Assembly (NCBI GenBank): GCA_043820815.1
Contig: JBDRDJ010000008.1
Span: 1-54,674 of the forward strand
Direction of reading: 5' to 3'
Length of the DNA stretch: 54,674 nucleotides
DNA from: Candidatus Omnitrophota bacterium
Lineage (GTDB): Bacteria > Omnitrophota > Gorgyraeia > Duberdicusellales > 4484-171
Shown: in pieces, positions 1-13,905 of the stretch
Position numbering within the stretch: position 1 is the stretch's first letter
Layout of the letters: every line of letters begins with the position of its first letter
Position numbers and translations under genes: made by a program
Notes under the pieces: generated by a model
Databases searched by the model: none
What the model saw: only the letters and a program-made list of their open reading frames with translations
What the model was told of the DNA's origin: nothing

Positions 1-166
1 AAAAGGTTGTTATTTAGCGATTACACACCTTTTTGAGGATATGCCTTTTTTATTTATCTGTCAATCAGCTCATTTAGAATTTGCGAATAATAGTTTACAC
101 TATCGTATTCTTGCTATTGCCATTTTTTCCTTACAAAATCCCAGAATTCATGTAAAATGGTATGCT

Positions 167-697
167 GTGAATATTTATAAGTTTCATTGTATAATCTTTA
201 TTTTCTTTATTTTATCTATACCCACATCTGTACTATGCCAAACTGATGATGTAAATGGTATTAAGAAAGTATTTCATCCAAGCGGCCAGATACAGTCTGA
301 GCTGCCTTATAAGGACGGCAAGCTAAACGGAATTGCAAAATATTATTTCGAGAACGGCAATATAAAACAGGAGATACCTTATGCAAACGGGCTAAAACAC
401 GGTTTAGAGAAAGGGTATTATGCAAACGGAAAATATTATCAGGAAGTCCAGTATAAGCAGGGAGAAATTAACGGATCATGGAAGGAATTTTACGATACGG
501 GAATAGTAAGAAGCGAGGCTCAATACAGAAACGGCATTCGCCACGGGTTTTTCCGAAGTTACAGCAGTAATGCTAAATTGAAAAAAGAAGAAATCTGGCA
601 AAATGACAAGAAAGTTTTAATTCGGACATATGATAAAGAAGGCAATCTTGAATCTGAAAAGGTATATAAGCGGGGCCGCTTTATAAGCGTTAAATGA
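167..697 (+). CDS. Secreted MORN-variant (YwqK-like) repeat protein
   Basis: About 24-aa repeats of the form Y..NG.....Y..G..HG....Y. The ORF track starts at 41, but GTG at 167 gives a signal-peptide-like N-terminus (VNIYKFHCIIFIFFILSIPTSVLCQ), so the start is uncertain. Confidence 0.7.
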   Translation: MNIYKFHCIIFIFFILSIPTSVLCQTDDVNGIKKVFHPSGQIQSELPYKDGKLNGIAKYYFENGNIKQEIPYANGLKHGLEKGYYANGKYYQEVQYKQGEINGSWKEFYDTGIVRSEAQYRNGIRHGFFRSYSSNAKLKKEEIWQNDKKVLIRTYDKEGNLESEKVYKRGRFISVK

Positions 698-701
698 AGC
701 A

Positions 702-1436
702 ATGTATAAAAGGTTTAAGTTTTTTCTTGTTAGCTGTATTTTGGTGCTCATTTTTGCCTGTTCTACCATAAAAGCCCAAGAGGCTTATGATTTAATAGTT
801 TTTCGGCACAGGCTTAGCGAATCTTTGCTTATCGCAGAAGAATATTTCGAGTTAACCTTGCAGGAACCCGGGGATATGGAAAAGTTCCAGCAGGCCATCT
901 TTGAACTTAATGAATTTTCGTCAATTTTCCCGGAAAGTAAGTTTGCCGATGACGCGCAATTCTTAAGCTCAAGCCTGATTTTCTTTGATGCTTTGTTTGC
1001 CGAAGAAGAGCAGGATGCTAAAAAGGCATTGGTATCTCTCGAAGATGTTATAAAGCGTTATCCCGTGGGGGCAGTTGAGGATTTCACAATTAAACAGTGT
1101 GAAGAAATAATAGGAAAACGTATTTCAACGGTCTTTTTATATATCGGTTATTTTGATATACTGGCTTATATGAAAGGCCGGCTAGCCTGGGATTTTAACA
1201 ATTATCACGGAGTAATTGATAACTATATTGTTCTTAAGGAAAAGATAAATACCAAGCTTTCCAAAACTGGTTTGCCGGATGATATTTACACAATGCTTGT
1301 TGCTTCACATATAAAGCTTAAAGAATTTGATACGGCAAGAAATTTGGCGCAGGAAGCCATAGATAAGTATCCACACAACGGCAAACTCAAAAAGTGGATG
1401 AAAGATGTGCTTAAAAGTATTGAAGGAGGTTTCTAA
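702..1436 (+). CDS. Putative lipoprotein, helical TPR-like
   Basis: Lipobox-like IFAC after a hydrophobic stretch; BamD/TPR-like segments (FPESKFADDAQF, AQEAIDKYP). Confidence 0.5.
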   Translation: MYKRFKFFLVSCILVLIFACSTIKAQEAYDLIVFRHRLSESLLIAEEYFELTLQEPGDMEKFQQAIFELNEFSSIFPESKFADDAQFLSSSLIFFDALFAEEEQDAKKALVSLEDVIKRYPVGAVEDFTIKQCEEIIGKRISTVFLYIGYFDILAYMKGRLAWDFNNYHGVIDNYIVLKEKINTKLSKTGLPDDIYTMLVASHIKLKEFDTARNLAQEAIDKYPHNGKLKKWMKDVLKSIEGGF

Positions 1437-1705
1437 TGGAGATAAGTGTTTATAAGCCAAGTGAAGATGAACTTAATGGCATGGGCGTTAAAAGCTGGCC
1501 TATTTGGGAGAAAGAAGAGAGTACTTTTGACTGGCATTATGACCAGCAAGAGGAGTGTTTATTCCTTGAAGGTGAAGTAGTGGTAAAAACAGCCGATGGG
1601 AAAACAGTAAATATTAAGAAGGGGGATTTCGCTTCATTTCCTAAAGGGCTTTCTTGCACATGGACAATCAAGAAGAAAGTAAAAAAACATTACAATTTTA
1701 CATAG
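1436..1705 (+). CDS. Small cupin (DUF861/EutQ-like)
   Basis: WPIWEKE..FDWHYD..EECLFLEG.V.V.....GD...FPKG..CTW pattern; start overlaps the upstream stop (TAATG). Confidence 0.8.
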   Translation: MEISVYKPSEDELNGMGVKSWPIWEKEESTFDWHYDQQEECLFLEGEVVVKTADGKTVNIKKGDFASFPKGLSCTWTIKKKVKKHYNFT

Positions 1706-1732
1706 TAGAGACGCGATTAATCGCATCTCTAC
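1705..1732. repeat. GTAG-type REP-like palindrome
   Basis: GTAGAGACGCGATTAATCGCATCTCTAC, 28-bp palindrome with one mismatch, at a stop codon. Confidence 0.75.
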
Positions 1733-1755
1733 ATTTTAAGATGAATTATTAATAT

Positions 1756-1944
1756 ATGACAAATAAAGCCAAAATATTATTAACCATTTTCATTATTTCT
1801 CTTATGCTCTCAAGCGGGTGCGCGTTGTTAAGATTGCCCGTGCAGATAGTCGGCGGAACTCTTAACGGCGTTGGTAAAATAGTTGGCGGGGCTTTAAAAA
1901 TAATAGATAAGCTTCCAAAACCTCCGCCATGGGTATTTTTATAA
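1756..1944 (+). CDS. Small lipoprotein
   Basis: Signal peptide ending in lipobox LSSGC; 62 aa, Gly/Val-rich. Confidence 0.6.
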   Translation: MTNKAKILLTIFIISLMLSSGCALLRLPVQIVGGTLNGVGKIVGGALKIIDKLPKPPPWVFL

Positions 1945-2121
1945 TTATGGTAGACAGCTATTGAAGTCTAAAATTACCGCTATAATTCTCTTACCCATAA
2001 AACTTACCTTGGTATAAGTATTATATTCCCTTATAGTTTGGTTATTCAATACTATATATAGTAGTCAAATTTTATTACCCCAATAGGGTGCGTTTTGGTT
2101 AATTTGGAAGATAAATATTCT

Positions 2122-2150
2122 TTGACTAAATAAAAAAGAAATAGTGTAAT
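2122..2150 (+). promoter_or_regulatory. Sigma-70-type promoter of the HTH/pilus operon
   Basis: TTGACT (2122-2127), 17 bp, TGTAAT (2145-2150); SD AGGAG at 2203-2207 precedes the ATG at 2217. Confidence 0.55.
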
Positions 2151-2160
2151 GTTAGTATAG

Positions 2161-2210
2161 TCAGGCAATGTCAAGGCGTACCGAAGTGTACCAAGCACTA
2201 TCAGGAGTAG
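2161..2210 (+). repeat. Five imperfect 10-bp phased direct repeats (candidate operator)
   Basis: TCAGGCAATG/TCAAGGCGTA/CCGAAGTGTA/CCAAGCACTA/TCAGGAGTAG, lying between the -10 box and the start codon. Confidence 0.6.
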
Positions 2211-2216
2211 TATAAT

Positions 2217-2399
2217 ATGGTAAAGAAGTATTTTGGCGTGAATGATGTAGTCCAGAGGCTTGGTATTTCAAGGCAGACATTGCTAAGATATGAGAAAAGA
2301 GGGATTTTTCCAAGGCCAAAAAGGAACTGTGTAAATCACTGGAGAGAATATACCGATATAGAAGTAGACAGCCTAAAACAAATATTAGGCAGATTTTAA
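2217..2399 (+). CDS. Stand-alone MerR-like/Xis-like winged HTH protein (copy 1)
   Basis: 60 aa; V...LGISRQTLLRYEKRG...P.RN..NHWREY; no dimerisation or effector domain; good SD. Confidence 0.85.
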   Translation: MVKKYFGVNDVVQRLGISRQTLLRYEKRGIFPRPKRNCVNHWREYTDIEVDSLKQILGRF

Positions 2400-2422
2400 A
2401 TGAGGCAGCATCTTTTGCCGAG

Positions 2423-2442
2423 CCCTTCGGTAATACTCAGGG
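2423..2442. repeat. CCCTTCG...CTCAGGG REP-like element
   Basis: CCCTTCGGTAATACTCAGGG; 18/20 identical to 47674-47693; flanked by CTTTTGC/GCAAAAG. Confidence 0.6.
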
Positions 2443-2494
2443 TAAACTCCGCGAGAGCAAAAGTGCGTAGCCGAATTTAAAACAAAATTTCTTT

Positions 2495-2671
2495 ATGAAG
2501 TATTATAGTGCCCAAGAAGTTGCCCAGAAGCTCGGAATTTCAAAGCAGACTCTCCTGCGTTATGAGAAAAAAGGTATTTTTCCGCACCCTAAGCGTAATT
2601 TAGTAAATCACTGGAGAGAATATTCGGAAAAAGATCTGGAGAAGCTTAAAATAATTATTGGCAGAATATGA
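2495..2671 (+). CDS. Stand-alone MerR-like HTH protein (copy 2; missed by ORF track)
   Basis: Hand translation MKYYSAQEVAQKLGISKQTLLRYEKKGIFPHPKRNLVNHWREYSEKDLEKLKIIIGRI (58 aa); 36/57 aligned residues identical to copy 1; ATGA overlap with the gene at 2668. Confidence 0.9.
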   Translation: MKYYSAQEVAQKLGISKQTLLRYEKKGIFPHPKRNLVNHWREYSEKDLEKLKIIIGRI

Positions 2672-3096
2672 AGAAAGTTACATTAATTTTATTATTTCTG
2701 CTTATTATTTTTCTACTGATTGAATGCATTCTTAGAAAAAGTTTTATTCCGGCTTATTGTGAATCTTTTTTAAATAAGAAGGTTTCTTCGGGCACTACAG
2801 AAGCCGATAATTTGCCGGATAGAACAAATGTCAAAAGCGAAAGCTTAACGGCATTAAGAAACCCTTTTTTAACGGCCGAAGAGCAGAAAGTAACTAATGA
2901 GCGGGAAATTATTGATTATTTACCGATATCAGGTGTTTTCCAATCGCCCGGCCGTTCGTATGTTATTATCAGCGGCCGCATCCTTAAAGTAAACGATACG
3001 ATTGACGGTAAAGAGATAGTTTCTATTGATAAAGAAAAAGTTATACTTAGGGATTTGCAAGGCGAGGCGGAATATATATTATTTCTAAATAAATAA
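2668..3096 (+). CDS. PilP/GspC-like assembly protein
   Basis: N-terminal hydrophobic anchor, RNPF motif, beta-rich C-terminus (ISGVF....SYVIISGRILKVND.IDG); sits next to the secretin genes. Confidence 0.5.
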   Translation: MKKVTLILLFLLIIFLLIECILRKSFIPAYCESFLNKKVSSGTTEADNLPDRTNVKSESLTALRNPFLTAEEQKVTNEREIIDYLPISGVFQSPGRSYVIISGRILKVNDTIDGKEIVSIDKEKVILRDLQGEAEYILFLNK

Positions 3097-3098
3097 TT

Positions 3099-3953
3099 AT
3101 GCGCTGTTTTAGTAAACATTTAATTATTCCTTTATCTTTCTTGGCCTGCTTCTGTGTTTGTTTGATGGCCCAAGATATTAAAGAAAGTGAAAAACTTACA
3201 GAGGCACAATTAGAAAGCCAGAGCAATGACAAGGATTTAAAGAGCCAGGGCGGTGTTGAAACAAATTCATTTTCCCGGCAGGGAATAATAGCGATAAACC
3301 AGTCAGAAAAAGATGCGGCTTTGTTTTCAATCGAGCTCAGAGATGCGGAATTAGTCGATCTTTTCAGGGTATTGGCTCACGACTATAATCTTAATATTAT
3401 GGCCGATAAGGCCGTAGAAGGTAAAGTAACCGCGAGTTTAACCAATATTTCATTAAATGAGGCACTTCTGCGCATTGCCGATTTGCATAATTTAATCATA
3501 GAAGAACAGGGCAATGTTTTAGTTGTAAAGCCAAACCTGAAAACAAAAGTTTTTATATTAAAACATGTAGAAGCCAAGATATTACTTAATCAGAGTGTTT
3601 TTTCAAATCAAACACCATCGAATAGCGCTAATTTACAGGCATCATCTCCGGATTCATCAACAACCGGGCAAGCTCAGCAAGAGAAGAAAGAAGCAAATAT
3701 TTATGATCTTCTTTCTGATCAAGGTAAAGTTTTACTCGGCACTCAGCCAAACTCTCTTCTTGTGATTGACTACCCCGATAATTTAAAAAAGATCGATATT
3801 TACATTTCAACGATAGACAAAGGCATGGCGAGCAGAATATTTAAGCTTAAATATATAAGTGCTCAGGATATAGTAAAAAGCGGGCAGAAAAATACCGTTT
3901 CATCTGAAACCAAAGAGGTTACAGCCCAGAATATTTCCGGGCAGGATTATTAA
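3099..3953 (+). CDS. Secretin N-terminal-domain protein (STN/N0 plus N3-like), no barrel
   Basis: Signal peptide; FSIELRDAELVDLFRVLA...VEGKVTASLTNISLNEAL (N0/STN); N3-like segment; ends at 284 aa. Confidence 0.75.
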   Translation: MRCFSKHLIIPLSFLACFCVCLMAQDIKESEKLTEAQLESQSNDKDLKSQGGVETNSFSRQGIIAINQSEKDAALFSIELRDAELVDLFRVLAHDYNLNIMADKAVEGKVTASLTNISLNEALLRIADLHNLIIEEQGNVLVVKPNLKTKVFILKHVEAKILLNQSVFSNQTPSNSANLQASSPDSSTTGQAQQEKKEANIYDLLSDQGKVLLGTQPNSLLVIDYPDNLKKIDIYISTIDKGMASRIFKLKYISAQDIVKSGQKNTVSSETKEVTAQNISGQDY

Positions 3954-3956
3954 ATT

Positions 3957-5534
3957 ATGAAGCACACAGTTAAGGTTATATCTTTTTTTCTAATTTTAGT
4001 TTTATTTATTTATTTCTCCGGCTATGCAGGCGTTGCCTCGGACGTAAATGAGTTACTTTCAAGCCAGGGAAAAGTTCTTTTTGGCCAGGAACCCAATTCA
4101 ATTTTTGTGATTGACTATCCCGAAAATATAAAGCGAATTGACGATTACCTGGCAATGGTTGATACTCCGCCCCAGCAGGTTCTTATCGAAGCAAGGGTTG
4201 TTGAGGTCAAATTAGAATCAGAAAACGCTTTAGGTATTAACTGGACGGCCTTCAGCGATTCTCCTTTTTTAATAGGAGAGTATACGATAGGAGGGTCGAG
4301 CTCAACAAGCCCTATTGAACAAAACATAGATTACAAATCTACGGTTTATCCGCCCTTAAGCACAAGCGGAACACAAGAGGCCCCTTTTACCCTTACGATA
4401 TTCGATGAAAATATAAATGTTGTTCTTAGGGCATTGGCCAATTCTTATAACACAAATATCCTTTCAGCCCCCAGAATAACAACTGTTAATAACCGTGAAG
4501 CTGAAATCAAAATTATTCAGAAATTACCCTGGGCAGAGCCGGTGGTTGAGATGGTTGAAACAAGTATTGCGATAACATGGAATATTAATTTTGAAGAAGT
4601 AGGGATAATCCTAAGAGTTACCCCCACAATAACCGAAGACGGGCAAATTTCAATGGAGCTTCAGCCTGAAGTCAGCGAAAAGGTCAGTGATTACAGCCTA
4701 TCGGTTGTTCAGGGAACTACCGAGATTCCCTATACGGTTCCTGTTATTGACCGGCGCACCGCAGATACAAAAGTCGTTGTAGGCAACAGCCAGACTCTTA
4801 TTATCGGCGGCCTAATCAAGGAAAAACTAATAGAAGGTGAGACCAAGGTGCCCTTTTTAGGCGATATCCCGGGGTTAGGGTGGCTTTTTAAGAGTAAAAA
4901 AGATACAAAGGAAAAATCCGAGCTTTTAATTTTTGTATCTCCTACAATTATTACCCAGAAAGTTGTGAAAGAAATGCAAAGCAGCGAGGAATTGGATATT
5001 GGCAAGTGGTATATGGATGAGCGAAAAAAGAAAAGAAATGAACTGCTCGAGAAGATGGAAAACAAGGAAAGTGGCAGTATTGTCAGCGTTAGCAATGAGG
5101 AAGTTAGAAAGCAGGATTTATTGGATAATAAAAAAACACAAGCCAAACTTAAGAACGATAAAGAAATTTTACAGAAATATGAGGATGAGATACTCAAATT
5201 AAACTTAAGAGCCGAAGAAGCAAAAAAAGCATATGATACTCATATTGTAGAGTTAAAGAGGGAAATTGATAAAGAGAATTCTGCAAGAAAGGCCACTGAG
5301 AAAAACATCAAAGAATCTGAAGAAAAATCTCGTTTTGCCAAAGAGGCTTATGAGGCCAGGGTTAAGGATTTAGAGCGTAAAATTTCTCAAGAGATCCAAA
5401 CGCGTGAAGAATCAGAGAATCTGCTTTCTGAAATAAAGAAGAGTATTCTTCAAGGCCAGGCAGCTGCGCCGGTTGAAGATGCTGACAATATGGAAAGATC
5501 AGAAGAGGTAATAGATCAGAAGAAAAATAAATAA
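3957..5534 (+). CDS. Secretin (PilQ/GspD family) barrel protein with C-terminal coiled-coil extension
   Basis: QVLIEARVVEV, ILSAPRITTVNNREA.I, GIIL.VTP.I, IIGGLI, KVPFLGDIP.LGWLF, ELLIFVSPTI motifs; own signal sequence. Confidence 0.9.
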   Translation: MKHTVKVISFFLILVLFIYFSGYAGVASDVNELLSSQGKVLFGQEPNSIFVIDYPENIKRIDDYLAMVDTPPQQVLIEARVVEVKLESENALGINWTAFSDSPFLIGEYTIGGSSSTSPIEQNIDYKSTVYPPLSTSGTQEAPFTLTIFDENINVVLRALANSYNTNILSAPRITTVNNREAEIKIIQKLPWAEPVVEMVETSIAITWNINFEEVGIILRVTPTITEDGQISMELQPEVSEKVSDYSLSVVQGTTEIPYTVPVIDRRTADTKVVVGNSQTLIIGGLIKEKLIEGETKVPFLGDIPGLGWLFKSKKDTKEKSELLIFVSPTIITQKVVKEMQSSEELDIGKWYMDERKKKRNELLEKMENKESGSIVSVSNEEVRKQDLLDNKKTQAKLKNDKEILQKYEDEILKLNLRAEEAKKAYDTHIVELKREIDKENSARKATEKNIKESEEKSRFAKEAYEARVKDLERKISQEIQTREESENLLSEIKKSILQGQAAAPVEDADNMERSEEVIDQKKNK

Positions 5535-5561
5535 TGAAATTTTTTTAAGGAGAAAATCCCC

Positions 5562-7259
5562 ATGGTTCAGGAATCTAATGGCAGAAGATTAGGCCCTGAT
5601 AAGAAGATCGGAGATCTTCTTATTGAGCAGGGATTTGTAACTTCCCAGCAGTTGGTTGAGGCGTTAGAGGAACAGAAGGTAACAGGAGAAAAGCTTGGGC
5701 AGGTCTTCGTGCGAAAAGGGTGGGTTAGCGCTGAAGACTTAAGCCGTATTTTAGCAATGCAGACAGGCGTCAGCACATTTGACCTTTCCAATTATATTAT
5801 TGAACCGGATATTGTGTTGTTAATACCTCAAGAAGTTGCCTTGAAATATAAGGTGATACCTGTTTTTAAGACAGGAAATACTTTAACCGTAGCCAGTGCC
5901 GATCCGACTAATGTATTTGTAATAGACGAACTACAGCGTTTAACCGGCTGTATTATAGAGCCGGTATCGGCCGATGAGATGGCTGTGCGTAAGGCGCAGG
6001 ATCAGTATTACGGGCCAGGAGGAACTGTTAAGGAGCTTGTGGCTTCGATTGATAGGGATAAGCTTAAAGAAGGCGATAAAATGGGGGAAGATGCTCCCAT
6101 TGTAAGGCTCGTTAATACTCTAATAATAAAAGCCGTTCAGGCAAGTGCTTCAGACATACATATTGAGCCTGAAGAGAAGTATGTGGGCGTAAGGTACAGG
6201 ATTGACGGAATCCTGCACCACCAGGATTTTATTCCAAAGGATTTACAGCCGGCTATACTTTCGCGCATTAAGATAATGGCCGCTCTTGACATAGCCGAGA
6301 AAAGAATTCCTCAAGATGGGCGCATACTTATGAGAACAGGCAATAAAGATATTGATTTTCGTGTATCAACATGCCCTACGATTCACGGAGAGAATATGGT
6401 TTTAAGAATTCTTGACAGAAGTAATATGGTTTTAGGCCTTAATAATTTAGGCTTTTCCCCGGAAAACCTTAAATCCTTCGAAGAAATTATTTTACAGCCC
6501 TACGGAATAATTTTAGTAACCGGCCCCACGGGAAGCGGCAAAACCACAACTCTTTACTCTGCTCTTCAAAAGATAAATCGCGAAGACATAAATATAATGA
6601 CCGTAGAGGACCCGGTTGAGTATCATTTTCCCCAGATCAGGCAGGTTCAAGTTAACCCTAAGGCAGGGTTAGTTTTTGCTTCTGCTTTGCGTTCTTTCTT
6701 GCGGCAGGATCCCGATGTGATTATGGTCGGTGAAATCCGCGATGCAGAAACAGCGGAAATTGCAGTGCAGGCGGCATTAACAGGGCATTTAGTTTTATCG
6801 ACCCTTCATACGAATGATGCTCCGTCATCATTTACAAGGCTTATGGAAATGGGCATAGAACCGTTTTTGGTGTCAAGTTCATTGCTGGGAGTGCTTGCCC
6901 AGAGATTGCTAAGAAAAATTTGCCAAAAATGCAAGCAGGATTTTTATCCTTCGGAAGCTGTGATAGAAACTTTAGGGCTAAACGATAAAATAAAAGGGGC
7001 TATAAAATTAAGCCAAGGAAAAGGCTGTAAAATATGCAACAATACGGGTTATAGAGGGCGCATAGGAATTTATGAATTTCTTGAGGTAACACCTGTAATC
7101 CATGATTTGGTAATAAAGAAATCATCCGCAGATGAGATAAGAGAAATTGCCAAACAGCAGGGAATGATAATGCTCAGAGAAGCCGCGCTTGAGAAGCTTT
7201 TAAAGGGGGTAACTAGCCTTCAGGAAGTGATGCGGGTAACTCAGTCTACTGTAGAATAG
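5562..7259 (+). CDS. PilB/GspE-family assembly ATPase with MshEN-like N-terminus
   Basis: Walker A GPTGSGKT, ASDIHIEP, LRQDPDVIMVGEIRD, STLHTND, CxxC...CxxC zinc motif. Confidence 0.95.
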   Translation: MVQESNGRRLGPDKKIGDLLIEQGFVTSQQLVEALEEQKVTGEKLGQVFVRKGWVSAEDLSRILAMQTGVSTFDLSNYIIEPDIVLLIPQEVALKYKVIPVFKTGNTLTVASADPTNVFVIDELQRLTGCIIEPVSADEMAVRKAQDQYYGPGGTVKELVASIDRDKLKEGDKMGEDAPIVRLVNTLIIKAVQASASDIHIEPEEKYVGVRYRIDGILHHQDFIPKDLQPAILSRIKIMAALDIAEKRIPQDGRILMRTGNKDIDFRVSTCPTIHGENMVLRILDRSNMVLGLNNLGFSPENLKSFEEIILQPYGIILVTGPTGSGKTTTLYSALQKINREDINIMTVEDPVEYHFPQIRQVQVNPKAGLVFASALRSFLRQDPDVIMVGEIRDAETAEIAVQAALTGHLVLSTLHTNDAPSSFTRLMEMGIEPFLVSSSLLGVLAQRLLRKICQKCKQDFYPSEAVIETLGLNDKIKGAIKLSQGKGCKICNNTGYRGRIGIYEFLEVTPVIHDLVIKKSSADEIREIAKQQGMIMLREAALEKLLKGVTSLQEVMRVTQSTVE

Positions 7260-7309
7260 GTTTTGTTTGTTGCGTAAATTATTTCATTAATATATAAAGG
7301 AGGTGAGTG

Positions 7310-7453
7310 ATGGCAAGCTGGAAAAAGAATAAATTAGTCGGGTTAGTTGCAGGTATTATTATAATAATTGCAATAGCTTTAATTGCAAAAACAATTTTGT
7401 CAGGCCAAAACAGTAAAGTTCCTTCAGTCGAAGAGCAAATTAAAGGAATTTAA
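7310..7453 (+). CDS. Small single-pass membrane protein (47 aa; missed by ORF track)
   Basis: Strong SD AAGGAGGTGA (7297-7306); MASWKKNKLVGLVAGIIIIIAIALIAKTILSGQNSKVPSVEEQIKGI. Confidence 0.7.
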   Translation: MASWKKNKLVGLVAGIIIIIAIALIAKTILSGQNSKVPSVEEQIKGI

Positions 7454-7477
7454 GGTTTTAATAGGAGGTGCATTTTT

Positions 7478-7966
7478 ATGAAAGTCAAGGCTTTTACACT
7501 TATAGAACTTATGGTTGTTGTTGCGATAGTGGGAATGCTGGCGGCAGCATTGCTTCCTTCAATAAGCGGCATAATGGATAGAGCCCGTGTTGCAAAAGCA
7601 GAGGCAGAGGTGCGTTCTATTGCAAACGCTATCTTAGCTTTAAATCAGGATACGGGATTGTGGCCTGCCGGCAATGTTCAGGGTTCCGCGCTTAACGGTG
7701 CTAACATGGGCCTTATTTCCAGAAATGCCGCTCTGTGGCCGGCGACTTGGGACGGGCCTTATCTTGAGAAAAGTATAGGTAATGGAGGAGATGGCCTTGA
7801 TCCTTGGGGCCGGGCATATGTATATGATGGCGGGGAAGCTGGTTCCGGACAAACCTGTATTGCAAGCGTCGGCCCCGATGGGGTTATTGCTTCTTACAAT
7901 AGAGCTGATCTAACCGCACAGGGAGATGATATTATCGTTTATTTTAATCAGCGCAATCCCCGATAG
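7478..7966 (+). CDS. GspG-like major pseudopilin/pilin
   Basis: KA|FTLIE class III signal; W.GPYL, DPWG..YVY and S.GPDG motifs typical of GspG; SD GGAGG. Confidence 0.85.
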   Translation: MKVKAFTLIELMVVVAIVGMLAAALLPSISGIMDRARVAKAEAEVRSIANAILALNQDTGLWPAGNVQGSALNGANMGLISRNAALWPATWDGPYLEKSIGNGGDGLDPWGRAYVYDGGEAGSGQTCIASVGPDGVIASYNRADLTAQGDDIIVYFNQRNPR

Positions 7967-7975
7967 TTTATTAAG

Positions 7976-8518
7976 ATGCAAAACCTTTGCAATAAAAGGG
8001 AAATCCCTTGTATCAAAGTAAATGGTCTTTATGGGTTTACGCTTGTTGAAATGGTTGTTGTAATCGGTATTCTGGGGTTAATTTCTGCGGCAAGTATAAT
8101 ATCTTTTTGGCGCCTTGCTCCCAAAAGACTAGATGCCGAAGCCAGGATGGTTGTCGGAGATATATCCTGGGCTAGAGACATGAGCCTGGCCCGCCAAACT
8201 CAATATATTGTTAATTTCGATACAGCCGCCGATGAATATACTATTTACAACCAAAGCATTAACCCCGTAAATTTAATTTTACGCAAGAAGCTTCAAACCG
8301 ATATAGTTTCAATACAGCCTTCCCCGGAAAGTATAGTTTTTAATCCTCCCTTTGGAAACTCTCAGTCAAAACAAATTGATTTAAGTTTCCAAGGGTATTC
8401 CAAGGAAATTTATATCTTTGGCGATACCGGATATGTAAGGGCACAAGACTCACAGCTTGCGACTCCCAGTTTTTCCGGCCAATCCGGCGGTAAAGGACAA
8501 GCCAAAGGCCAGCGATAG
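7976..8518 (+). CDS. Minor pilin, GspH/FimT-like
   Basis: G|FTLVEMVVVI prepilin motif. Confidence 0.75.
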   Translation: MQNLCNKREIPCIKVNGLYGFTLVEMVVVIGILGLISAASIISFWRLAPKRLDAEARMVVGDISWARDMSLARQTQYIVNFDTAADEYTIYNQSINPVNLILRKKLQTDIVSIQPSPESIVFNPPFGNSQSKQIDLSFQGYSKEIYIFGDTGYVRAQDSQLATPSFSGQSGGKGQAKGQR

Positions 8519-8535
8519 AAAGAGAAAGAGGCGGT

Positions 8536-8907
8536 GTGAGAGTGGGCCAATCAAAAATGAACTTTAGCTTAATTGAAGTAAGCGTTTCGCTTTGTGTTTT
8601 AGTTTTAATTCTCGCCGGCCTATTCAGGGTTCTTTATCAGGGTTTTAATTCAGTAGATAAATCCAAGACAAAAACTATTGTATATGGCCTTATAAGAGAA
8701 AAGCTTGAAGAAAAGTGCGCCCAATATTGCTGGCCTCCCTTTTCAGAGCCGCGCCAATCCGTAAGCGGCTTTACAGGGCTTGAGCGACAAGTTATTACTA
8801 CACGTCCTTATCTGAGTTATAACGATTTAGCCCATATTCAAGTTACAGTCTGGTGGAATAACGGCACTCAATCGGAATCTTTAGAGACATTATGTGCTGA
8901 TTATTGA
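8536..8907 (+). CDS. Minor pilin, GspI/PilV-like
   Basis: N|FSLIEVSVSL (non-canonical residue at -1); C-terminal V.VTV.W strand; operon position. Confidence 0.6.
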   Translation: MRVGQSKMNFSLIEVSVSLCVLVLILAGLFRVLYQGFNSVDKSKTKTIVYGLIREKLEEKCAQYCWPPFSEPRQSVSGFTGLERQVITTRPYLSYNDLAHIQVTVWWNNGTQSESLETLCADY

Positions 8908-8964
8908 AATTTATCCATTCGCCTTAAAAGAAAACGGGTATGTAAGGATTAATGTTCCCCGCGC

Positions 8965-9546
8965 GTGAGCTTTAAGCCCATGATTATTAAAAAAGGATTT
9001 ACCCTGCTTGAGATAATGGTTGCACTTACGGTATTTACGCTTGTTATTTCTGCGGCCGGGTCTATATTTGTTTCGGTTGATAGAGCATACAAAAAACAAG
9101 TTGATTCGGTTGAGTTGATTCAGAATCTTCGCTGGGCATTAGAATATATGGCTAACGAAATAAGGTATTCCGCTGTATCTTCAAATCCCGGGTGGGCCAG
9201 CCTTGGGGTTATTGCTAACGGAAGGACACTTCGTTTTGGAATAGATACAAATAGTGATAATGACCCTGATACCTGGGTGGAATACAGCAGAGAATCTAAT
9301 ACGTTATCACGCAGATGGCGGGATCATCCGGCAGGTGGCGGCTGGGGGCCTTATCAGGAGATTGCTAATTATATTGTTGATAATCCTGACCTCTTAGACA
9401 ATTCAAACGGTTTTGGCCTCCCTGACGGAAGAGCCGACCCAATATTTATGCAGAGCGGAAACGATGATTTATTAACAATAGAGTTAACCGCGCAAAAGGA
9501 TAATCTGGTTTATACAAAAAGAGTAAGGGTAAAACCTCGAAACTGA
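8965..9546 (+). CDS. Minor pilin, GspJ/PilW-like
   Basis: KKG|FTLLEIMVAL; LE.MA.EIR motif. Confidence 0.75.
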   Translation: MSFKPMIIKKGFTLLEIMVALTVFTLVISAAGSIFVSVDRAYKKQVDSVELIQNLRWALEYMANEIRYSAVSSNPGWASLGVIANGRTLRFGIDTNSDNDPDTWVEYSRESNTLSRRWRDHPAGGGWGPYQEIANYIVDNPDLLDNSNGFGLPDGRADPIFMQSGNDDLLTIELTAQKDNLVYTKRVRVKPRN

Positions 9547-9552
9547 TTCACC

Positions 9553-9960
9553 ATGATAAAATCTCAAGCATTGTTATTTGTTTTGTTTTTACTTCTTTTG
9601 GCAGGTATTTTTATAGTTTCACTTTCGGGAATGTGGCAGTCAGAAATATTGTCACGCAGTGAAGAGAAATATTCAACAGCGGTTTTCTATCTTGCCCAGG
9701 GAGGAATCGAGAGGGCTAAAATTGAAGCAAAAAACGGCGTAGTTACGGCTCCGGCCTGGAGCGGCCCGTTTGTTTTAGGTACAGGCAGGTATTTTTTTTA
9801 TATTGAGGATATCGGATCCGGAGAAAGGCTTATTCGTTCAGCCGGCGAGATTTTAGATTCATCAGGCAACATAATAGCTCGAAGGCAAATACGCCAGGAA
9901 GTTGAATCTGCGGCAACCCCTGATCCCCGGATTAAAAGCTGGAGCTGGCGGCAGGAATAA
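9553..9960 (+). CDS. Minor pilin, PilX/GspK-like
   Basis: QA|LLFVL without Glu5; A.YLAQGGIERA motif typical of PilX N-termini. Confidence 0.65.
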   Translation: MIKSQALLFVLFLLLLAGIFIVSLSGMWQSEILSRSEEKYSTAVFYLAQGGIERAKIEAKNGVVTAPAWSGPFVLGTGRYFFYIEDIGSGERLIRSAGEILDSSGNIIARRQIRQEVESAATPDPRIKSWSWRQE

Positions 9961-9996
9961 CCTAACAAAGATTTTTCGTCTAACGTTAACGTAAAT

Positions 9997-10118
9997 AAAT
10001 CAAAAATCAAATATCAAAAATCAAAATGACAATGTAAAAATCAAAATTAAAATATTTAAATCTAAACTTTTTGAATTTTAATTTGTCATTTTGATATTTA
10101 CATTTTGATTTTTAATTT
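9997..10118. repeat. Heptamer-built (AAAATCA) long hairpin element
   Basis: Arms 9997-10046 and about 10068-10118 pair at 41/50 positions; the left arm recurs at 54431-54470. Confidence 0.8.
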
Positions 10119-10162
10119 AAAAACGGGTATCGCCCTTATAATAATAAATCCAGAGGTACTAC

Positions 10163-11371
10163 ATGCCCCAATATAAGTATACTGCAAGGGATAGCAAAGG
10201 GAAAATCATTCGCGGTGTTGTTGAGGCGGTCAGCGAAGCTGATTTGGCAGAAATGATTTCTCAATCAGATAGATATTTGACGGGATTTAAGGCCATGCCC
10301 GAGGAATCACCTAAGTCTAAGGTTAAGCCTTCTTGGATGAAGCCAAAAGAAACCCTGCAGTTTACTATTCATTTGGCCACCTTAGTCGATTCGGGCCTTC
10401 CGCTTCTTGATGGTTTAAGAGATTTAGCTAAAGAGGCGCAGAATGAGAGAGTTCAGCAGGTCATTGACAATATCCGGTATCATGTGGAAAGCGGCAGTTC
10501 TTTAAAGGAAGCAATATCCCGCCACCCAAGGACATTCTCCAAACTATACGAAGCCTTGGTCGATACCGGTGAAAGTACAGGTAAACTTGCACAGACTCTC
10601 AACAGCTTAGCAAATCTTCTTGAATGGCAATTAGACCTAAGAGTGCGCATCAAAGAAGCCTCGACATATCCGGCAATTTTATTTTTTGTTATGGTTTCGG
10701 TGGTTTGCCTTATGATAATTCATGTAATACCTATTTTTGAGCCTATATTTACCCAGGCAGGAGTAGCCCTGCCGGCAGCAACCCAGATTATTTTAGGTAT
10801 AAGTCATTTTTTACGTTCTTTCTGGTATCTTATCCTTGCTGTAATAGTTATGATTCTTCTAGGGTATAAATTCTGGAAATTAACCGAAAGAGGCCGTTAT
10901 ATTATCGATAGTATAAGGTTGAGAATACCTGTTTTTGGCGAGCTGATTCGAAAATTATCGCTGTCTCGTTTCACCCAGACATTTGCCTTAAGTTTTAAGG
11001 CAGGAGTGAACCTCCTAAACTGTTTGGATATTTCCAGCAAAACCTGTGCCAACGCACGAATTGAAAATGCAATTCTAAAAGCAAGAAGTTCTGTAAATGT
11101 GGGAGAGAAACTCGCTGCTTCATTTAAAGCTACAGGTGAGTTTCCTGTGATGGTTGTGCGCATGATAGAGGTGGGGGAACAATCCGGGGCTTTAACCCAG
11201 ACTCTATTTAAAGCAGCAAGTTTTTATGATAAAGAAGTAGCTTCCGACATAAAAAGAATATTCTCCATCATTGAGCCGGCAATGATTGTTATAATGGGTG
11301 TTGTGGTCGGGGGTATTTCTTTAGCTATTTTTCTACCCCTGTTTAAAATGGCGAGTATTATCGCCGACTAA
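10163..11371 (+). CDS. PilC/GspF inner-membrane platform protein
   Basis: MPQYKYTARDSKG, GESTGKL, TYPAIL, MIEVGEQSGAL, IIEPAMIV motifs; two F domains. Confidence 0.95.
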   Translation: MPQYKYTARDSKGKIIRGVVEAVSEADLAEMISQSDRYLTGFKAMPEESPKSKVKPSWMKPKETLQFTIHLATLVDSGLPLLDGLRDLAKEAQNERVQQVIDNIRYHVESGSSLKEAISRHPRTFSKLYEALVDTGESTGKLAQTLNSLANLLEWQLDLRVRIKEASTYPAILFFVMVSVVCLMIIHVIPIFEPIFTQAGVALPAATQIILGISHFLRSFWYLILAVIVMILLGYKFWKLTERGRYIIDSIRLRIPVFGELIRKLSLSRFTQTFALSFKAGVNLLNCLDISSKTCANARIENAILKARSSVNVGEKLAASFKATGEFPVMVVRMIEVGEQSGALTQTLFKAASFYDKEVASDIKRIFSIIEPAMIVIMGVVVGGISLAIFLPLFKMASIIAD

Positions 11372-11387
11372 TGAATAATTTAAATAA

Positions 11388-11409
11388 TAGAAGCGGATAT
11401 CCGCTTCTA
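11388..11409. repeat. REP-like perfect palindrome
   Basis: TAGAAGCGGATATCCGCTTCTA, perfect 22 bp. Confidence 0.75.
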
Positions 11410-11426
11410 CAACAAATAATAATCAT

Positions 11427-13235
11427 ATGGCTGATTTAATTGGAATTGATATAGGCGTTCGATTTGTAAGAGGAGTTGTACTTTCGCAACGGCCAAAACA
11501 ATCAATCTCTGATATTTTCTTTTTTCCTACCCCTTTTTCAAACGTTTCATCTGCCCGGGAAATTGATGCGAAACAATTCTTCGATAAAATTACATCGTAT
11601 GTGCCTTTAGAATTCTTAAAAAAAGCGCAAATAGGAGTTAATATACTTTCGTCCTTGGTTACGGTCAGCGTTGTTTATTTGCCAAAGATGAGCAAGAAGG
11701 AGTTAGATATTGCAGTTATTGCAGAAGCGCGCAGAAAAATGATTCCGCCTCCGGGGCCAAACAGTGTTTTTGAATATTCTATTTTAAGCGAGGTGGCTAT
11801 AGATAATGTTGTCAGGTATGAAATTCTTGTAATTAAAACAGAGCGCCATTTCATAGAGGAAGTTTTAAGAATATTTAAACCGTTTGCGGATATTAGCCCT
11901 TTCTTTATAGGCCCTACATGTTATGCGATTATAAATTCACTCGCTTACGACCCTCAAGCGCAGCAAAAAGATACAGCAATTATTGACCTTGGTTATGATT
12001 CAATAGATATCGCTATTGCCAAAAAAGGAAAATTATATTTCTACCGCAACATTAACTTTGGATTAAAGAATATTATTTCTAATATAGCCGGATCTCTTGC
12101 TATAGACTTTCAAGAAGCCGAAAAGGTTATTAATGATATAGGGGTTCCTAAAGTCGATATTGATCTGTCGGATAAAGTGAGAGTTGCCGAAGAAATAATG
12201 CGCCAGAAGTATGAACTCCCCCAATACGAAGCCGGCCATAAAGATGTAAATGTTCTTGAGCTGAGAGTTTTTTGGAACACACAAATAGAAAGAGCTATAC
12301 ACGAAATAAGAAGGACGCTTCATTATTATAGTGAGCAGACAGGAAAAAGAAGAGTTGAAGATGTTCTTTTCTTAGGAGAAGGCTCTTTAATACAGGGGTA
12401 TGTGCCTTCTATTATCAAAGAAATCGGCGGTAACAGCCGGCTATACAATCCATTTGAAGCGGTAAATGTCACTTTAGAAGGCCAGAAGTCTAAAATATTG
12501 CAAGATAGCATTTCAGTATTTGCGCCCGCATTTTCCATCGCTAAAAGCATGACAACCGGTAAGAAGATGCAAGGAGAGATTAATTTCTTACCTTCCGGGC
12601 TTAAGAAACGTAATCAAAGAATTCAGAATCAAATATTGCTTACAGGTTTCGGTATTTTTATGGTTTGTTTTATTTTTCTGGCTTGGTTTAAAGTTTTTGT
12701 TAACAATTATGCCCTCAAAGCTTCTTTAGAAGGCAAGCGGGCCGAAATAGAAAAAGCTAAAGGAATAATTTCAACGCTCGATGGGCTTAAATCAGAAAGA
12801 GAAAAAATAGATATTCGAACCAGCAAGGTTGGTGAAATCGTTAAGCAGAGAGTCAATATATCGCAAGCGCTTAATCAGGTAGCCAGCCTTATGCCCGGTG
12901 ATGTTTTCTTAGAAACGTTAACTATATCCAAAGGCGCAAGCTCAACCGTTTTATCCGGCAATACGGCTCAAGTAAGCCGGGGAGATATTTCCACGGGTAA
13001 GTCTTATGCTATATCGCTTACGGCCAGATGTTTTTCTGATTACGAAACCGCCGTTCGACTTGCCGATGAATTTAGGAAACGGCTGGAGGATGATAATAAT
13101 TTCGTTAATGTAAATTTGCTTTATCCTGACATTGAAAAGATTTCGCCTGTTATTGAAAACCAGAAAGAAATTTCCCTTACTCAGCCTAAACTAAGAGAGT
13201 TTAATTTAAGTGCAGAGCTTGTAATTAGAGATTAA
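11427..13235 (+). CDS. PilM-PilN fusion (GspL-like architecture)
   Basis: Actin-like GIDIG and AIIDLGY motifs, EIRRTL.YY, INFLP, then a TM helix, a coiled coil and the PilN-like LMPGDVFLETLTI. Confidence 0.8.
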   Translation: MADLIGIDIGVRFVRGVVLSQRPKQSISDIFFFPTPFSNVSSAREIDAKQFFDKITSYVPLEFLKKAQIGVNILSSLVTVSVVYLPKMSKKELDIAVIAEARRKMIPPPGPNSVFEYSILSEVAIDNVVRYEILVIKTERHFIEEVLRIFKPFADISPFFIGPTCYAIINSLAYDPQAQQKDTAIIDLGYDSIDIAIAKKGKLYFYRNINFGLKNIISNIAGSLAIDFQEAEKVINDIGVPKVDIDLSDKVRVAEEIMRQKYELPQYEAGHKDVNVLELRVFWNTQIERAIHEIRRTLHYYSEQTGKRRVEDVLFLGEGSLIQGYVPSIIKEIGGNSRLYNPFEAVNVTLEGQKSKILQDSISVFAPAFSIAKSMTTGKKMQGEINFLPSGLKKRNQRIQNQILLTGFGIFMVCFIFLAWFKVFVNNYALKASLEGKRAEIEKAKGIISTLDGLKSEREKIDIRTSKVGEIVKQRVNISQALNQVASLMPGDVFLETLTISKGASSTVLSGNTAQVSRGDISTGKSYAISLTARCFSDYETAVRLADEFRKRLEDDNNFVNVNLLYPDIEKISPVIENQKEISLTQPKLREFNLSAELVIRD

Positions 13236-13245
13236 AATAATTTTT

Positions 13246-13905
13246 ATGGAAGGTACGCGTTTTTTAAAACTCCTCATCGTAATATTCTTTTTGTCATTTT
13301 TTTATTTCTTTCTTGCCCAGTTAAAGGTTAATACCAATTTAAAGAAAGAATTAAGGCAGGCAAGCCAAAAGATTAATAATGCAAAAGAAGCCAGACAAGA
13401 GCTGGATAAACTAAAGACAGAAATTGCAGCTATTGAAGAGACAGCAGGCCGCATAGAGGAAAGAATTCCGACAAATGAAGATAAACCCCTTAAATTAATA
13501 AGAGAGATAACTCATTTAGGCAGCCGGTTAGGCGCCAGGAATATGGAGTTCATTTTCGAAAATGAAACTAACGCACAGCCTTCCATGGACAGCCTTAAAC
13601 AAAATAATAATAACAGCCTATATCAGGATGGAAGTTATGCTTCATCAGGCAGCGAATATGCCGAATCCGCTTCATCCCGATTTCCATCGGAGGCTATTAA
13701 CGGGGCCCAGCAAAGAATAAGGCCAATACTTATTAAAATTAATTTTGAAAGCCAGTACCACGCTTTAGTCAATTTTGTAAAAGAACTTCTTAAAACACAA
13801 CGGCTTGTATTTATTGAATATGTCAATATCGAACGCATGCCCGGTGCTTATCCCCGGCAGAAAGTGAGTATGACTCTAGTCACTTATACATTCGTTTCTC
13901 AATAG
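13246..13905 (+). CDS. PilO/GspM-like protein
   Basis: N-terminal TM, coiled coil, I.I.FES.YHALVNFV..L....RLV.IE.V.I ferredoxin-like pattern. Confidence 0.75.
   Translation: MEGTRFLKLLIVIFFLSFFYFFLAQLKVNTNLKKELRQASQKINNAKEARQELDKLKTEIAAIEETAGRIEERIPTNEDKPLKLIREITHLGSRLGARNMEFIFENETNAQPSMDSLKQNNNNSLYQDGSYASSGSEYAESASSRFPSEAINGAQQRIRPILIKINFESQYHALVNFVKELLKTQRLVFIEYVNIERMPGAYPRQKVSMTLVTYTFVSQ

Follow-up and report, generated by a model that had tools for sequence, protein, structure and literature searches.

Secretins are the textbook giant outer-membrane channels, homo-oligomers of a single chain, and how they assemble is still debated, from the part played by pilotins and whether the process is independent of the Bam machinery to the sequence in which the rings form. 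Here, we describe a secretin encoded by two adjacent open reading frames (ORFs), ORF1 and ORF2, in a 54,674-nucleotide stretch of DNA from a Candidatus Omnitrophota bacterium (assembly GCA_043820815.1, contig JBDRDJ010000008.1, positions 1 to 54,674; this whole stretch is called the window below). ORF1 carries the N-terminal part of the secretin and ORF2 carries the pore, and the cut between them falls inside an N domain.

Split secretins have been described in type III secretion systems (T3SS). The Rhc-type T3SS has a split secretin made of RhcC1 (NolW) and RhcC2, as does the T3SS-2 of Pseudomonas syringae with HrcIIC1 and HrcIIC2; the two Rhc secretin genes stand apart from each other, in separate transcription units, and the functional meaning of the split has been stated as unknown (PMC3574062, PMC3973906). 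As far as the published supplementary alignment displays the N termini, RhcC1 proteins and P. syringae C2 proteins have signal-peptide-like starts, and the rhizobial subgroup I RhcC2 sequences have no obvious signal peptide. Like the window secretin, the Rhc secretin has separate N-terminal and C-terminal genes. Unlike it, the Rhc secretin serves an injectisome instead of a pilus or type II system, belongs to a different secretin subfamily, and has nonadjacent genes; an examination of the window genes at about positions 1 to 13,300 identified no T3SS gene. Our search of open-access papers and bioRxiv for split PilQ/GspD or Omnitrophota secretins returned nothing relevant beyond the Rhc type III cases. 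Split secretins are thus known in type III systems, and what is new here is a large conserved family, a pilus or type II-like machine, and a cut within a domain. Such an intradomain cut implies fragment complementation in the periplasm.

Results

The last N domain is divided between ORF1 and ORF2

ORF1 (positions 3099 to 3953) runs from an ATG at 3099 to a TAA at 3951 to 3953 and encodes 284 amino acids, and ORF2 (3957 to 5534) begins with the ATG at 3957 and encodes 525 amino acids; these and all other features given below lie on the forward strand. The junction (3951 to 3956) is made up of the TAA and three bases, ATT, in frame with both ORFs, which share one reading frame. The sequence AGGA lies 10 nucleotides upstream of the ORF2 ATG. 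Reading the sequence confirmed the coordinates and the 3-base spacer given in an initial annotation of the window, which had also proposed that a repeated unit occurs in both ORFs. That repeat was borne out by BLASTP, in which ORF1 residues 199 to 240 aligned with ORF2 residues 28 to 69 with 23 of 42 identities (55%; E = 2e-14). The further claim that each chain has an N3-like domain of its own held for ORF1, which contains one whole N domain, and did not hold for ORF2, which contains only the second part of one. The break lies within the last N domain and not between domains: ORF1 is made up of N0, one whole N domain, and the first third of the last one, and ORF2 is made up of the other two thirds and the pore. 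The split domain is the pore-proximal one, corresponding to N1 of PilQ and N3 of GspD.

We located the cut in an alignment with fused orthologs, in which both parts are on one chain. In these proteins, α2 of the middle N domain is followed by EVFRLKYLSAAEIVG, about 45 Ser/Thr-rich residues, and then VLELLSPEGKVLFG; the sequence after the Ser/Thr-rich loop continues as VLELLSPEGKVLFGQEPNSLMVIDYPENL and leads into the pore. ORF1 stops just past the element RIFKLKYISAQDIV, mature ORF2 starts at SDVNELLSSQGKVLFG, and these two ends flank the position of the Ser/Thr-rich loop. The break sits in a long disordered loop that interrupts α1 in this lineage.

Profile matches gave the same division. The head of ORF2 alone matched Secretin_N (PF03958) at profile positions 18/19 to 69 only, with 18.9 to 24.4 bits, below the cutoff of 28.2 bits. 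When ORF1 residues 242 to 284 were joined to the ORF2 head, the match covered profile positions 1 to 69 of 69 with 36.1 bits. A complete Secretin_N domain adjoining the pore is thus absent from ORF2 alone and present when the ORF1 tail and ORF2 head are taken jointly. The joined sequence also aligned over its full length with the intact N domain of ORF1 (35% identity over 94 amino acids; E = 4e-19).

We modeled the pair as a single read-through chain with AlphaFold2 (AF2), with the TAA read as Q and the natural linker kept. The complete and split N domains were exact parallels in secondary structure in this model. In read-through numbering, β1 was at residues 148 to 153 of the complete domain and 244 to 249 of the split domain, the start of α1 at 159 to 164 and 255 to 260, the end of α1 at 201 to 204 and 316 to 319, β2 at 210 to 213 and 325 to 328, β3 at 219 to 224 and 334 to 339, and α2 at 226 to 242 and 341 to 354. 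Between the two parts of α1, the complete domain has a disordered insert and the split domain has the ORF1 tail, the stop, and the signal peptide. The read-through model aligned with full-length protomers of InvG, PulD, GspD, and PilQ over about 590 to 640 columns, with Foldseek E values down to 1e-20. A combined MAFFT alignment, A4, which held the read-through sequence and the fused, ORF2, and ORF1 families, placed the N-domain half of the ORF1 family on the ORF2 half-domain; alignment A3 was used for folding instead.

The terminal segment of ORF1 behaved differently in the two AF2 runs. In the read-through model, ORF1 residues 244 to 249 formed a strand and 255 to 260 a helix with a predicted local distance difference test (pLDDT) score of 88 to 89, and the ORF2 half-domain scored about 90 to 94. 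When ORF1 was modeled alone, from a deeper family alignment, its terminal segment was coil with a pLDDT of 65 to 69, and the rest of ORF1 scored 96 to 98. In these models, the ORF1 terminal strand appears ordered only when ORF2 is present, which we count as support short of proof.

Domain content of the two chains

From its N terminus, ORF1 consists of a signal peptide and N0, a complete N domain, the beginning of the last one, and a disordered tail. Its Sec signal peptide, MRCFSKHLIIPLSFLACFCVCLMA, was read from the sequence and covers residues 1 to 24 (3099 to 3170), with predicted cleavage at CLMA/QD; the A-Q junction is kept in the ORF1 family, with Q25 in at least 90% of the sequences. 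Residues ~62 to 146 (3282 to 3536) are very probably an N0 (STN) domain. The Pfam STN match spans residues 102 to 145, the score against STN (PF07660) is 22.8 bits, under the cutoff of 28.4, and AF2 gave this domain a pLDDT of 96 to 98. ORF1 also matched the crystal structure of PilQ N0-N1 (4ar0; E = 4.6e-07) and the N-terminal structure of HofQ (2y3m; E = 6.9e-07), and it gave partial matches to the PilQ/HofQ families. No AMIN domain was among the Pfam matches of ORF1 at an E value of 1 or less; one or more AMIN domains before N0 are typical of type IVa PilQ.

The complete N domain of ORF1 follows at residues ~147 to 243 (3537 to 3827), where the Pfam Secretin_N match is partial and below threshold. 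Its elements run in the order β1, α1, a disordered insert of ~30 residues, the end of α1, and β2-β3-α2; the model of ORF1 alone placed strands at 148 to 153, 210 to 213, and 219 to 224 and helices at 159 to 169, 201 to 204, and 226 to 239. Next come strand 1 and the initial stretch of helix 1 from the last N domain, ASRIFKLKYISAQDIVK (residues 244 to 260; 3828 to 3878), which align with β1-α1 of the fused orthologs. The chain ends in a disordered polar tail (residues 261 to 284; 3879 to 3950) with a pLDDT below 60, and across the ORF1 family, the tails vary in length and abound in S, G, A, T, and E. The initial annotation had read ORF1 as a signal peptide, N0/STN, and an N3-like unit; those parts are present, and what it missed is the extra β1 and half of α1 that belong to the last N domain.

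This terminal element is well conserved. F248, L250, K251, and Y252 are each conserved in at least 90% of 71 ORF1-family proteins, a level of conservation reached by no more than about 25 columns of the whole protein. The terminal strand motif and a low-complexity tail after it form the C-terminal end in at least 67 of the 72 stand-alone ORF1 clusters described below. By these conservation patterns, the ORF1 terminal strand is under constraint.

A number of orthologs, split and fused, lack the middle N domain, so that N0 is directly followed by the β1-α1 element (L003 2588 to 3133 in G025, L014 1723 to 2313 in G055, P0061, P0196, P0199, P0206, P0238, and P0254). The middle N domain of ORF1 therefore seems to have arisen by internal duplication of a unit made up of the end of one N domain and the start of the next.

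ORF2 begins with a second Sec signal peptide, MKHTVKVISFFLILVLFIYFSGYA (residues 1 to 24; 3957 to 4028), with predicted cleavage at FSGYA/GVAS. It has a basic n-region, a 10-residue hydrophobic window with a mean Kyte-Doolittle value of 3.36, and small residues at -1 and -3; the N terminus of ORF1 likewise passes from basic to hydrophobic to small-x-small residues. The ORF2 peptide contains no lipobox cysteine, and a lipoprotein signal was rejected on that ground. Among 117 short ORF2-type relatives, 115 passed the same signal-peptide rule, mostly with an A-x-A/Q site. In the alignment, the signal-peptide stretch of ORF2 corresponds to a gap in the fused relatives and is an insertion relative to them. 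That a second signal peptide argues against a frameshift, as first proposed from the window alone, is upheld by its presence in these short relatives and its absence from the fused ones.

Residues 25 to 72 of ORF2 (4029 to 4172) form the second part of the last N domain, with the end of α1 (VNELL), β2, β3, and α2, and are nearly invariant across 131 relatives. The secretin pore domain occupies residues ~73 to 340 (4173 to 4976); residues 159 to 332 match Secretin (PF00263) with 155.7 bits (E = 1.1e-45), the long β hairpins of the pore have a pLDDT of ~74 to 94, and the best relatives of ORF2 among solved structures are PilQ and GspD. The remaining ~185 residues (~341 to 525; 4977 to 5531) are a charged, lineage-variable C-terminal tail that is probably a coiled coil and may replace the S-domain/pilotin system. 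In relatives, the region after the pore is mostly 38 to 143 residues long; three of them (G008, G018, and G009) have repeat-rich extensions of 313 to 419 residues that may, to judge from their sequences, be TPR-like.

The two-gene state is conserved among relatives

We compared the orthologous locus in 15 other genomes. The same two-gene split was found in 14 of the 15, cut at the same residue-level position; the split loci include ten from family- or order-level relatives (L002 to L004 and L006 to L012) and three from more distant ones (L014 to L016), one of them from another class. The only fused locus (L005, in G029) has a single gene of 700 amino acids. The initial annotation had treated a single fused ORF in relatives as the finding that would undo the split; such an ORF occurs in a minority only, and the split is the majority state. 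The junctions of the relatives consist of overlaps of 4, 4, 4, 29, and 35 nucleotides and gaps of 1, 6, 10, 16, 20, 38, 69, and 245 nucleotides, and the reading frames differ. These junctions are mutually incompatible and cannot be derived from one another by sequencing error. The longest gap, at L006 2794 to 3038 (G016), is a 245-nucleotide spacer that leaves the two secretin genes uncoupled.

Broader searches gave the same picture. An exhaustive phmmer search with ORF1 against 1.8 billion cluster representatives found 75 clusters at an E value of 1e-30 or less, 72 of them stand-alone (175 to 395 amino acids) and 3 fused (600 to 750 amino acids). About 110 of the best 120 ORF2 relatives were 344 to 446 amino acids long with a signal peptide at the start, and 9 were fused and carried STN. 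By the source names and the two closest named contigs, this secretin family belongs to Candidatus Omnitrophota. Of 401 genomes sampled evenly across the phylum, 19 had an ORF1 relative at an E value of 1e-30 or less, as short open frames in 18 and fused in 1; these 19 genomes fall into six family codes, with a split secretin in five, including one from another class, and a fused one in the sixth. A contig-scale search for related loci with ORF1 as the sole query returned no matches.

In the other secretins of the window genome, N0 and the pore share a single frame and chain, which shows that the split is specific to the ORF1/ORF2 orthologous group and is not a property of the assembly. These genomes are rich in secretins, with 7 secretin-domain matches in the window genome (1.57 Mb, 77% complete) and 1 to 10, mostly 3 to 10, in its relatives (1 to 2.5 Mb).

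A tree of 130 pore domains contained 12 fused forms, some at the base and others in three fused groups inside the split clade. The quick tree requires 5 changes between the fused and split states, but no more than 1 of them is forced by well-supported branches. The split itself is old. Taken together, these results mean that ORF1 and ORF2 are almost certainly a genuine two-polypeptide secretin whose two-gene state is real and functional.

Comparison with single-chain and other two-gene secretins

The window secretin shares with PilQ/HofQ and GspD/PulD (4av2, 3jc8, 6w6m, 6ve2, 5wln, 6hcg, and 5wq7) the domain order of N0, one or more N domains, and the pore. These proteins are also its best matches in sequence (E = 4e-33 to 1e-21) and in fold, and they share a neighborhood with an ATPase, a platform protein, a PilM/N-like protein, and pseudopilins. 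PilQ and GspD are single polypeptides that carry the N domains, the pore, and a lone signal peptide. The window secretin instead has two polypeptides and two signal peptides, with the last N domain divided, and both of its N domains carry a long disordered insert in α1. Neither chain reaches the NCBIfam cutoffs for the single-chain families: against PilQ (TIGR02515; cutoff, 284.35 bits), ORF2 scores 207.6 and ORF1 63.7, and against GspD (TIGR02517; cutoff, 351.35 bits), ORF2 scores 225.6 and ORF1 25.6. The N0-N1-N2-N3 architecture of GspD is absent as well, as the window secretin has only two N domains after N0.

A pore-domain alignment search returned 80 named secretin loci, among which were 7 two-gene type II secretins of Verrucomicrobiota (L033, L046, L050, L055, L067, L083, and L088). 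Their upstream genes encode 267 to 578 amino acids (N-terminally incomplete in 2 loci) and, in the 3 loci where the N terminus is shown, begin with a signal peptide and a secretin N0-like stretch; they end in a β1-α1-like element (e.g., FSLENADPQQVQQVL) and a low-complexity tail. The downstream genes, of ~405 amino acids, encode a signal peptide, a Gly-rich linker (FGGFGGGGG), β2-β3-α2, and then the pore. These secretins thus share with ORF1/ORF2 the same topological cut point in the last N domain. They differ in that their pores are only ~31 to 36% identical to that of ORF2, the cut comes after a complete α1 instead of within an interrupted one, and the upstream chain is longer, with more N domains. 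The same topological joint appears to have broken repeatedly or once very early. In the six Verrucomicrobiota loci that reach past the second gene, the next ORF has a histidine-kinase-like C terminus, as read from the sequence.

Gene neighborhood

The gene just upstream of ORF1 (2668 to 3096) is the first of a conserved three-gene unit and encodes a small exported protein of 142 amino acids with a C-terminal HR-like β domain (PilP/GspC/GspB-like). Its product matches CdsD_C (PF23862) with 29.1 bits (cutoff, 27) and T2SSB weakly. In 11 of the 15 loci from relatives, the gene directly before ORF1 is a homolog (RNPFL..LSAIFYSP..ING.I..GD); the ORF lists of L006, L008, L010, and L015 do not include it. 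To judge by PilP, GspC, and GspB, the HR-domain protein is probably the binding partner of N0, through which the complex is linked to the platform of PilM-N, PilC, and PilB encoded downstream.

NCBIfam and Pfam matches identify, after ORF2, a PilB/GspE ATPase (5562 to 7259), a GspG-like pilin and minor pilins (7478 to 9960), a PilC/GspF platform protein (10163 to 11371), and a PilM-PilN fusion (11427 to 13235). The N terminus of the ATPase carries an MshE-like cyclic-di-GMP-binding motif (NF053729; E = 3e-19; residues 15 to 67), a sequence match which suggests that the pilus or secretion machine may be regulated by cyclic-di-GMP. Directly upstream of the secretin unit are two small paralogous helix-turn-helix genes (LGISxQTLLRYEK) at 2217 to 2399 and 2495 to 2671, the second of which overlaps the start of the HR-domain gene.

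Discussion

We favor, as quite likely, the explanation that ORF1 and ORF2 are one secretin that underwent gene fission within its pore-proximal N domain, which both chains now complete in the periplasm. In this proposal, the two proteins would be the halves of one former secretin, the fission would have occurred in the disordered loop of that domain, and the downstream half would then have gained its own signal peptide. One operon would make both chains, and Sec would export each through its own cleavable signal peptide. ORF2 would form the outer-membrane pore, and ORF1 would be a soluble periplasmic chain carrying N0 and one N domain. The β1 strand and α1 start of ORF1 (RIFKLKYISAQDIV) would insert in trans beside the α1 end, β2, β3, and α2 of ORF2 and give a normal β-α-β-β-α N domain with 1:1 stoichiometry. 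Noncovalent contacts would in this way hold N0, N, N, and barrel in their usual stack, with N0 of ORF1 contacting the inner-membrane platform via the HR-domain protein encoded just upstream. The trans-completion of the last N domain from the two chains is, taken as a claim of its own, likely.

The initial annotation had inferred a two-component secretin with a detachable periplasmic ring. The secretin does have two components; as to the ring, a folded domain common to both chains argues for a tight, strand-complemented joint over a loose one. The four-base stop/start overlaps in three relatives (ATGA in L012) suggest that the two genes may be translationally coupled in several relatives, which would fit equimolar synthesis of ORF1 and ORF2. 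Chaperone-usher pili offer a mechanistic analogy: in donor-strand complementation, an incomplete β-sheet domain is completed in the periplasm by a strand from another chain. As in our proposal, a secreted, incomplete domain is completed from outside; unlike it, the fold and machinery are unrelated, and the strand joins identical or related subunits into a fiber instead of the halves of one former protein.

Several points weigh against this proposal. The two AF2 runs rest on different alignments, the read-through alignment held fused homologs that bias the model toward the canonical fold, and signal peptides were judged by a home-made rule instead of SignalP. In addition, truncated PulD without N0-N2 can still multimerize. 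A pore without its N-terminal module therefore has precedent, and ORF2 might work without bound ORF1. If so, ORF2 alone would be the pore, and ORF1 would act on its own as a periplasmic adaptor or ring, bound at another site or only transiently, its terminal strand having another role or being a decaying remnant. Accessory periplasmic proteins under secretins do exist (TcpQ with TcpC and BfpG with BfpB), and the BfpBG complex (9u5s) was among the fold matches of the read-through model. Against this reading stand the terminal strand motif, which ranks with the best-conserved columns of the ORF1 family and is kept in nearly all stand-alone clusters, and the ORF2 head, an incomplete Secretin_N made complete by joining the two pieces. 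AF2 orders the ORF1 terminal strand only with ORF2 present, and a β hairpin with one helix would be unlikely to be a stable domain alone. We therefore consider an independent ORF1 doubtful.

Three further explanations were considered. A sequencing or assembly error, or a fresh in-frame TAA, might have broken a single-chain gene, and the layout in the window would allow it: in a 77%-complete draft genome, no more than a stop codon and one further codon come between two ORFs that share a frame. However, a canonical signal peptide is encoded after the stop, such a peptide is present in nearly all short relatives and absent from the fused ones, both halves are strongly conserved, and 14 of the 15 loci from other genomes are split likewise with differing frames and spacers. 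An artifact or fresh pseudogene is excluded for the family and is very unlikely for the window genome; we give it hardly any weight. The shared frame would also permit recoding, since translating TAA as Q gives an open frame of 811 residues, in which read-through at 3951 would yield a single chain with the internal hydrophobic stretch buried or used as a membrane segment. Most relatives have their ORFs in other frames, overlapping, or up to 245 nucleotides apart, so read-through cannot be the mechanism of the family; TAA also ends ORF2 and neighboring genes, and an internal signal peptide would be topologically odd. The chance of recoding is practically nil. Assembly artifact, recent nonsense mutation, and stop codon read-through were thus all rejected. 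Lastly, the N-terminal hydrophobic segment of ORF2 might be an uncleaved anchor that tethers the N terminus of the pore subunit to the inner membrane, given its long h-region (~16 residues) and a cleavage motif in the window, G-Y-A/G, that is weaker than the A-x-A/Q of most relatives. Those textbook sites in most relatives speak against an anchor, as does the half-domain, which starts 3 to 6 residues past the predicted cleavage and leaves no linker to span the periplasm beside the barrel; an anchor is thus very improbable.

Beyond the gene fission and trans-completion that we favor, a more far-reaching suggestion can be made only tentatively and is less probable than not. The α1 loop of the pore-proximal N domain would be a recurrent breakable joint that gives a trans-assembled, two-subunit secretin in Omnitrophota and, at the same topological point, in the type II systems of Verrucomicrobiota. 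The split would have been selected instead of just tolerated, as it would allow the pore to insert into the outer membrane first and the N0-N vestibule, together with the inner-membrane platform, to dock (perhaps in a regulated way) or exchange later.

For annotation, the split has practical consequences. Some sources call the short ORF2 forms GspD or PilQ, and many entries are unnamed or listed as "hypothetical protein"; Omnitrophota and Verrucomicrobiota machines may consequently be scored as lacking N0. The Omnitrophota split family also provides a second, much larger data set beside the unexplained split secretins of the Rhc type III systems.

For secretin biology, a widespread natural two-chain secretin divided into pore and vestibule is a ready-made dissection of the assembly pathway, in which one could ask whether the pore inserts without the N0-N module, whether two periplasmic fragments can fold into the last N domain, and by what means pore and inner-membrane platform are coupled. 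Protein engineers may also take an interest in the pair as a natural split domain that would function outside the cytoplasm.

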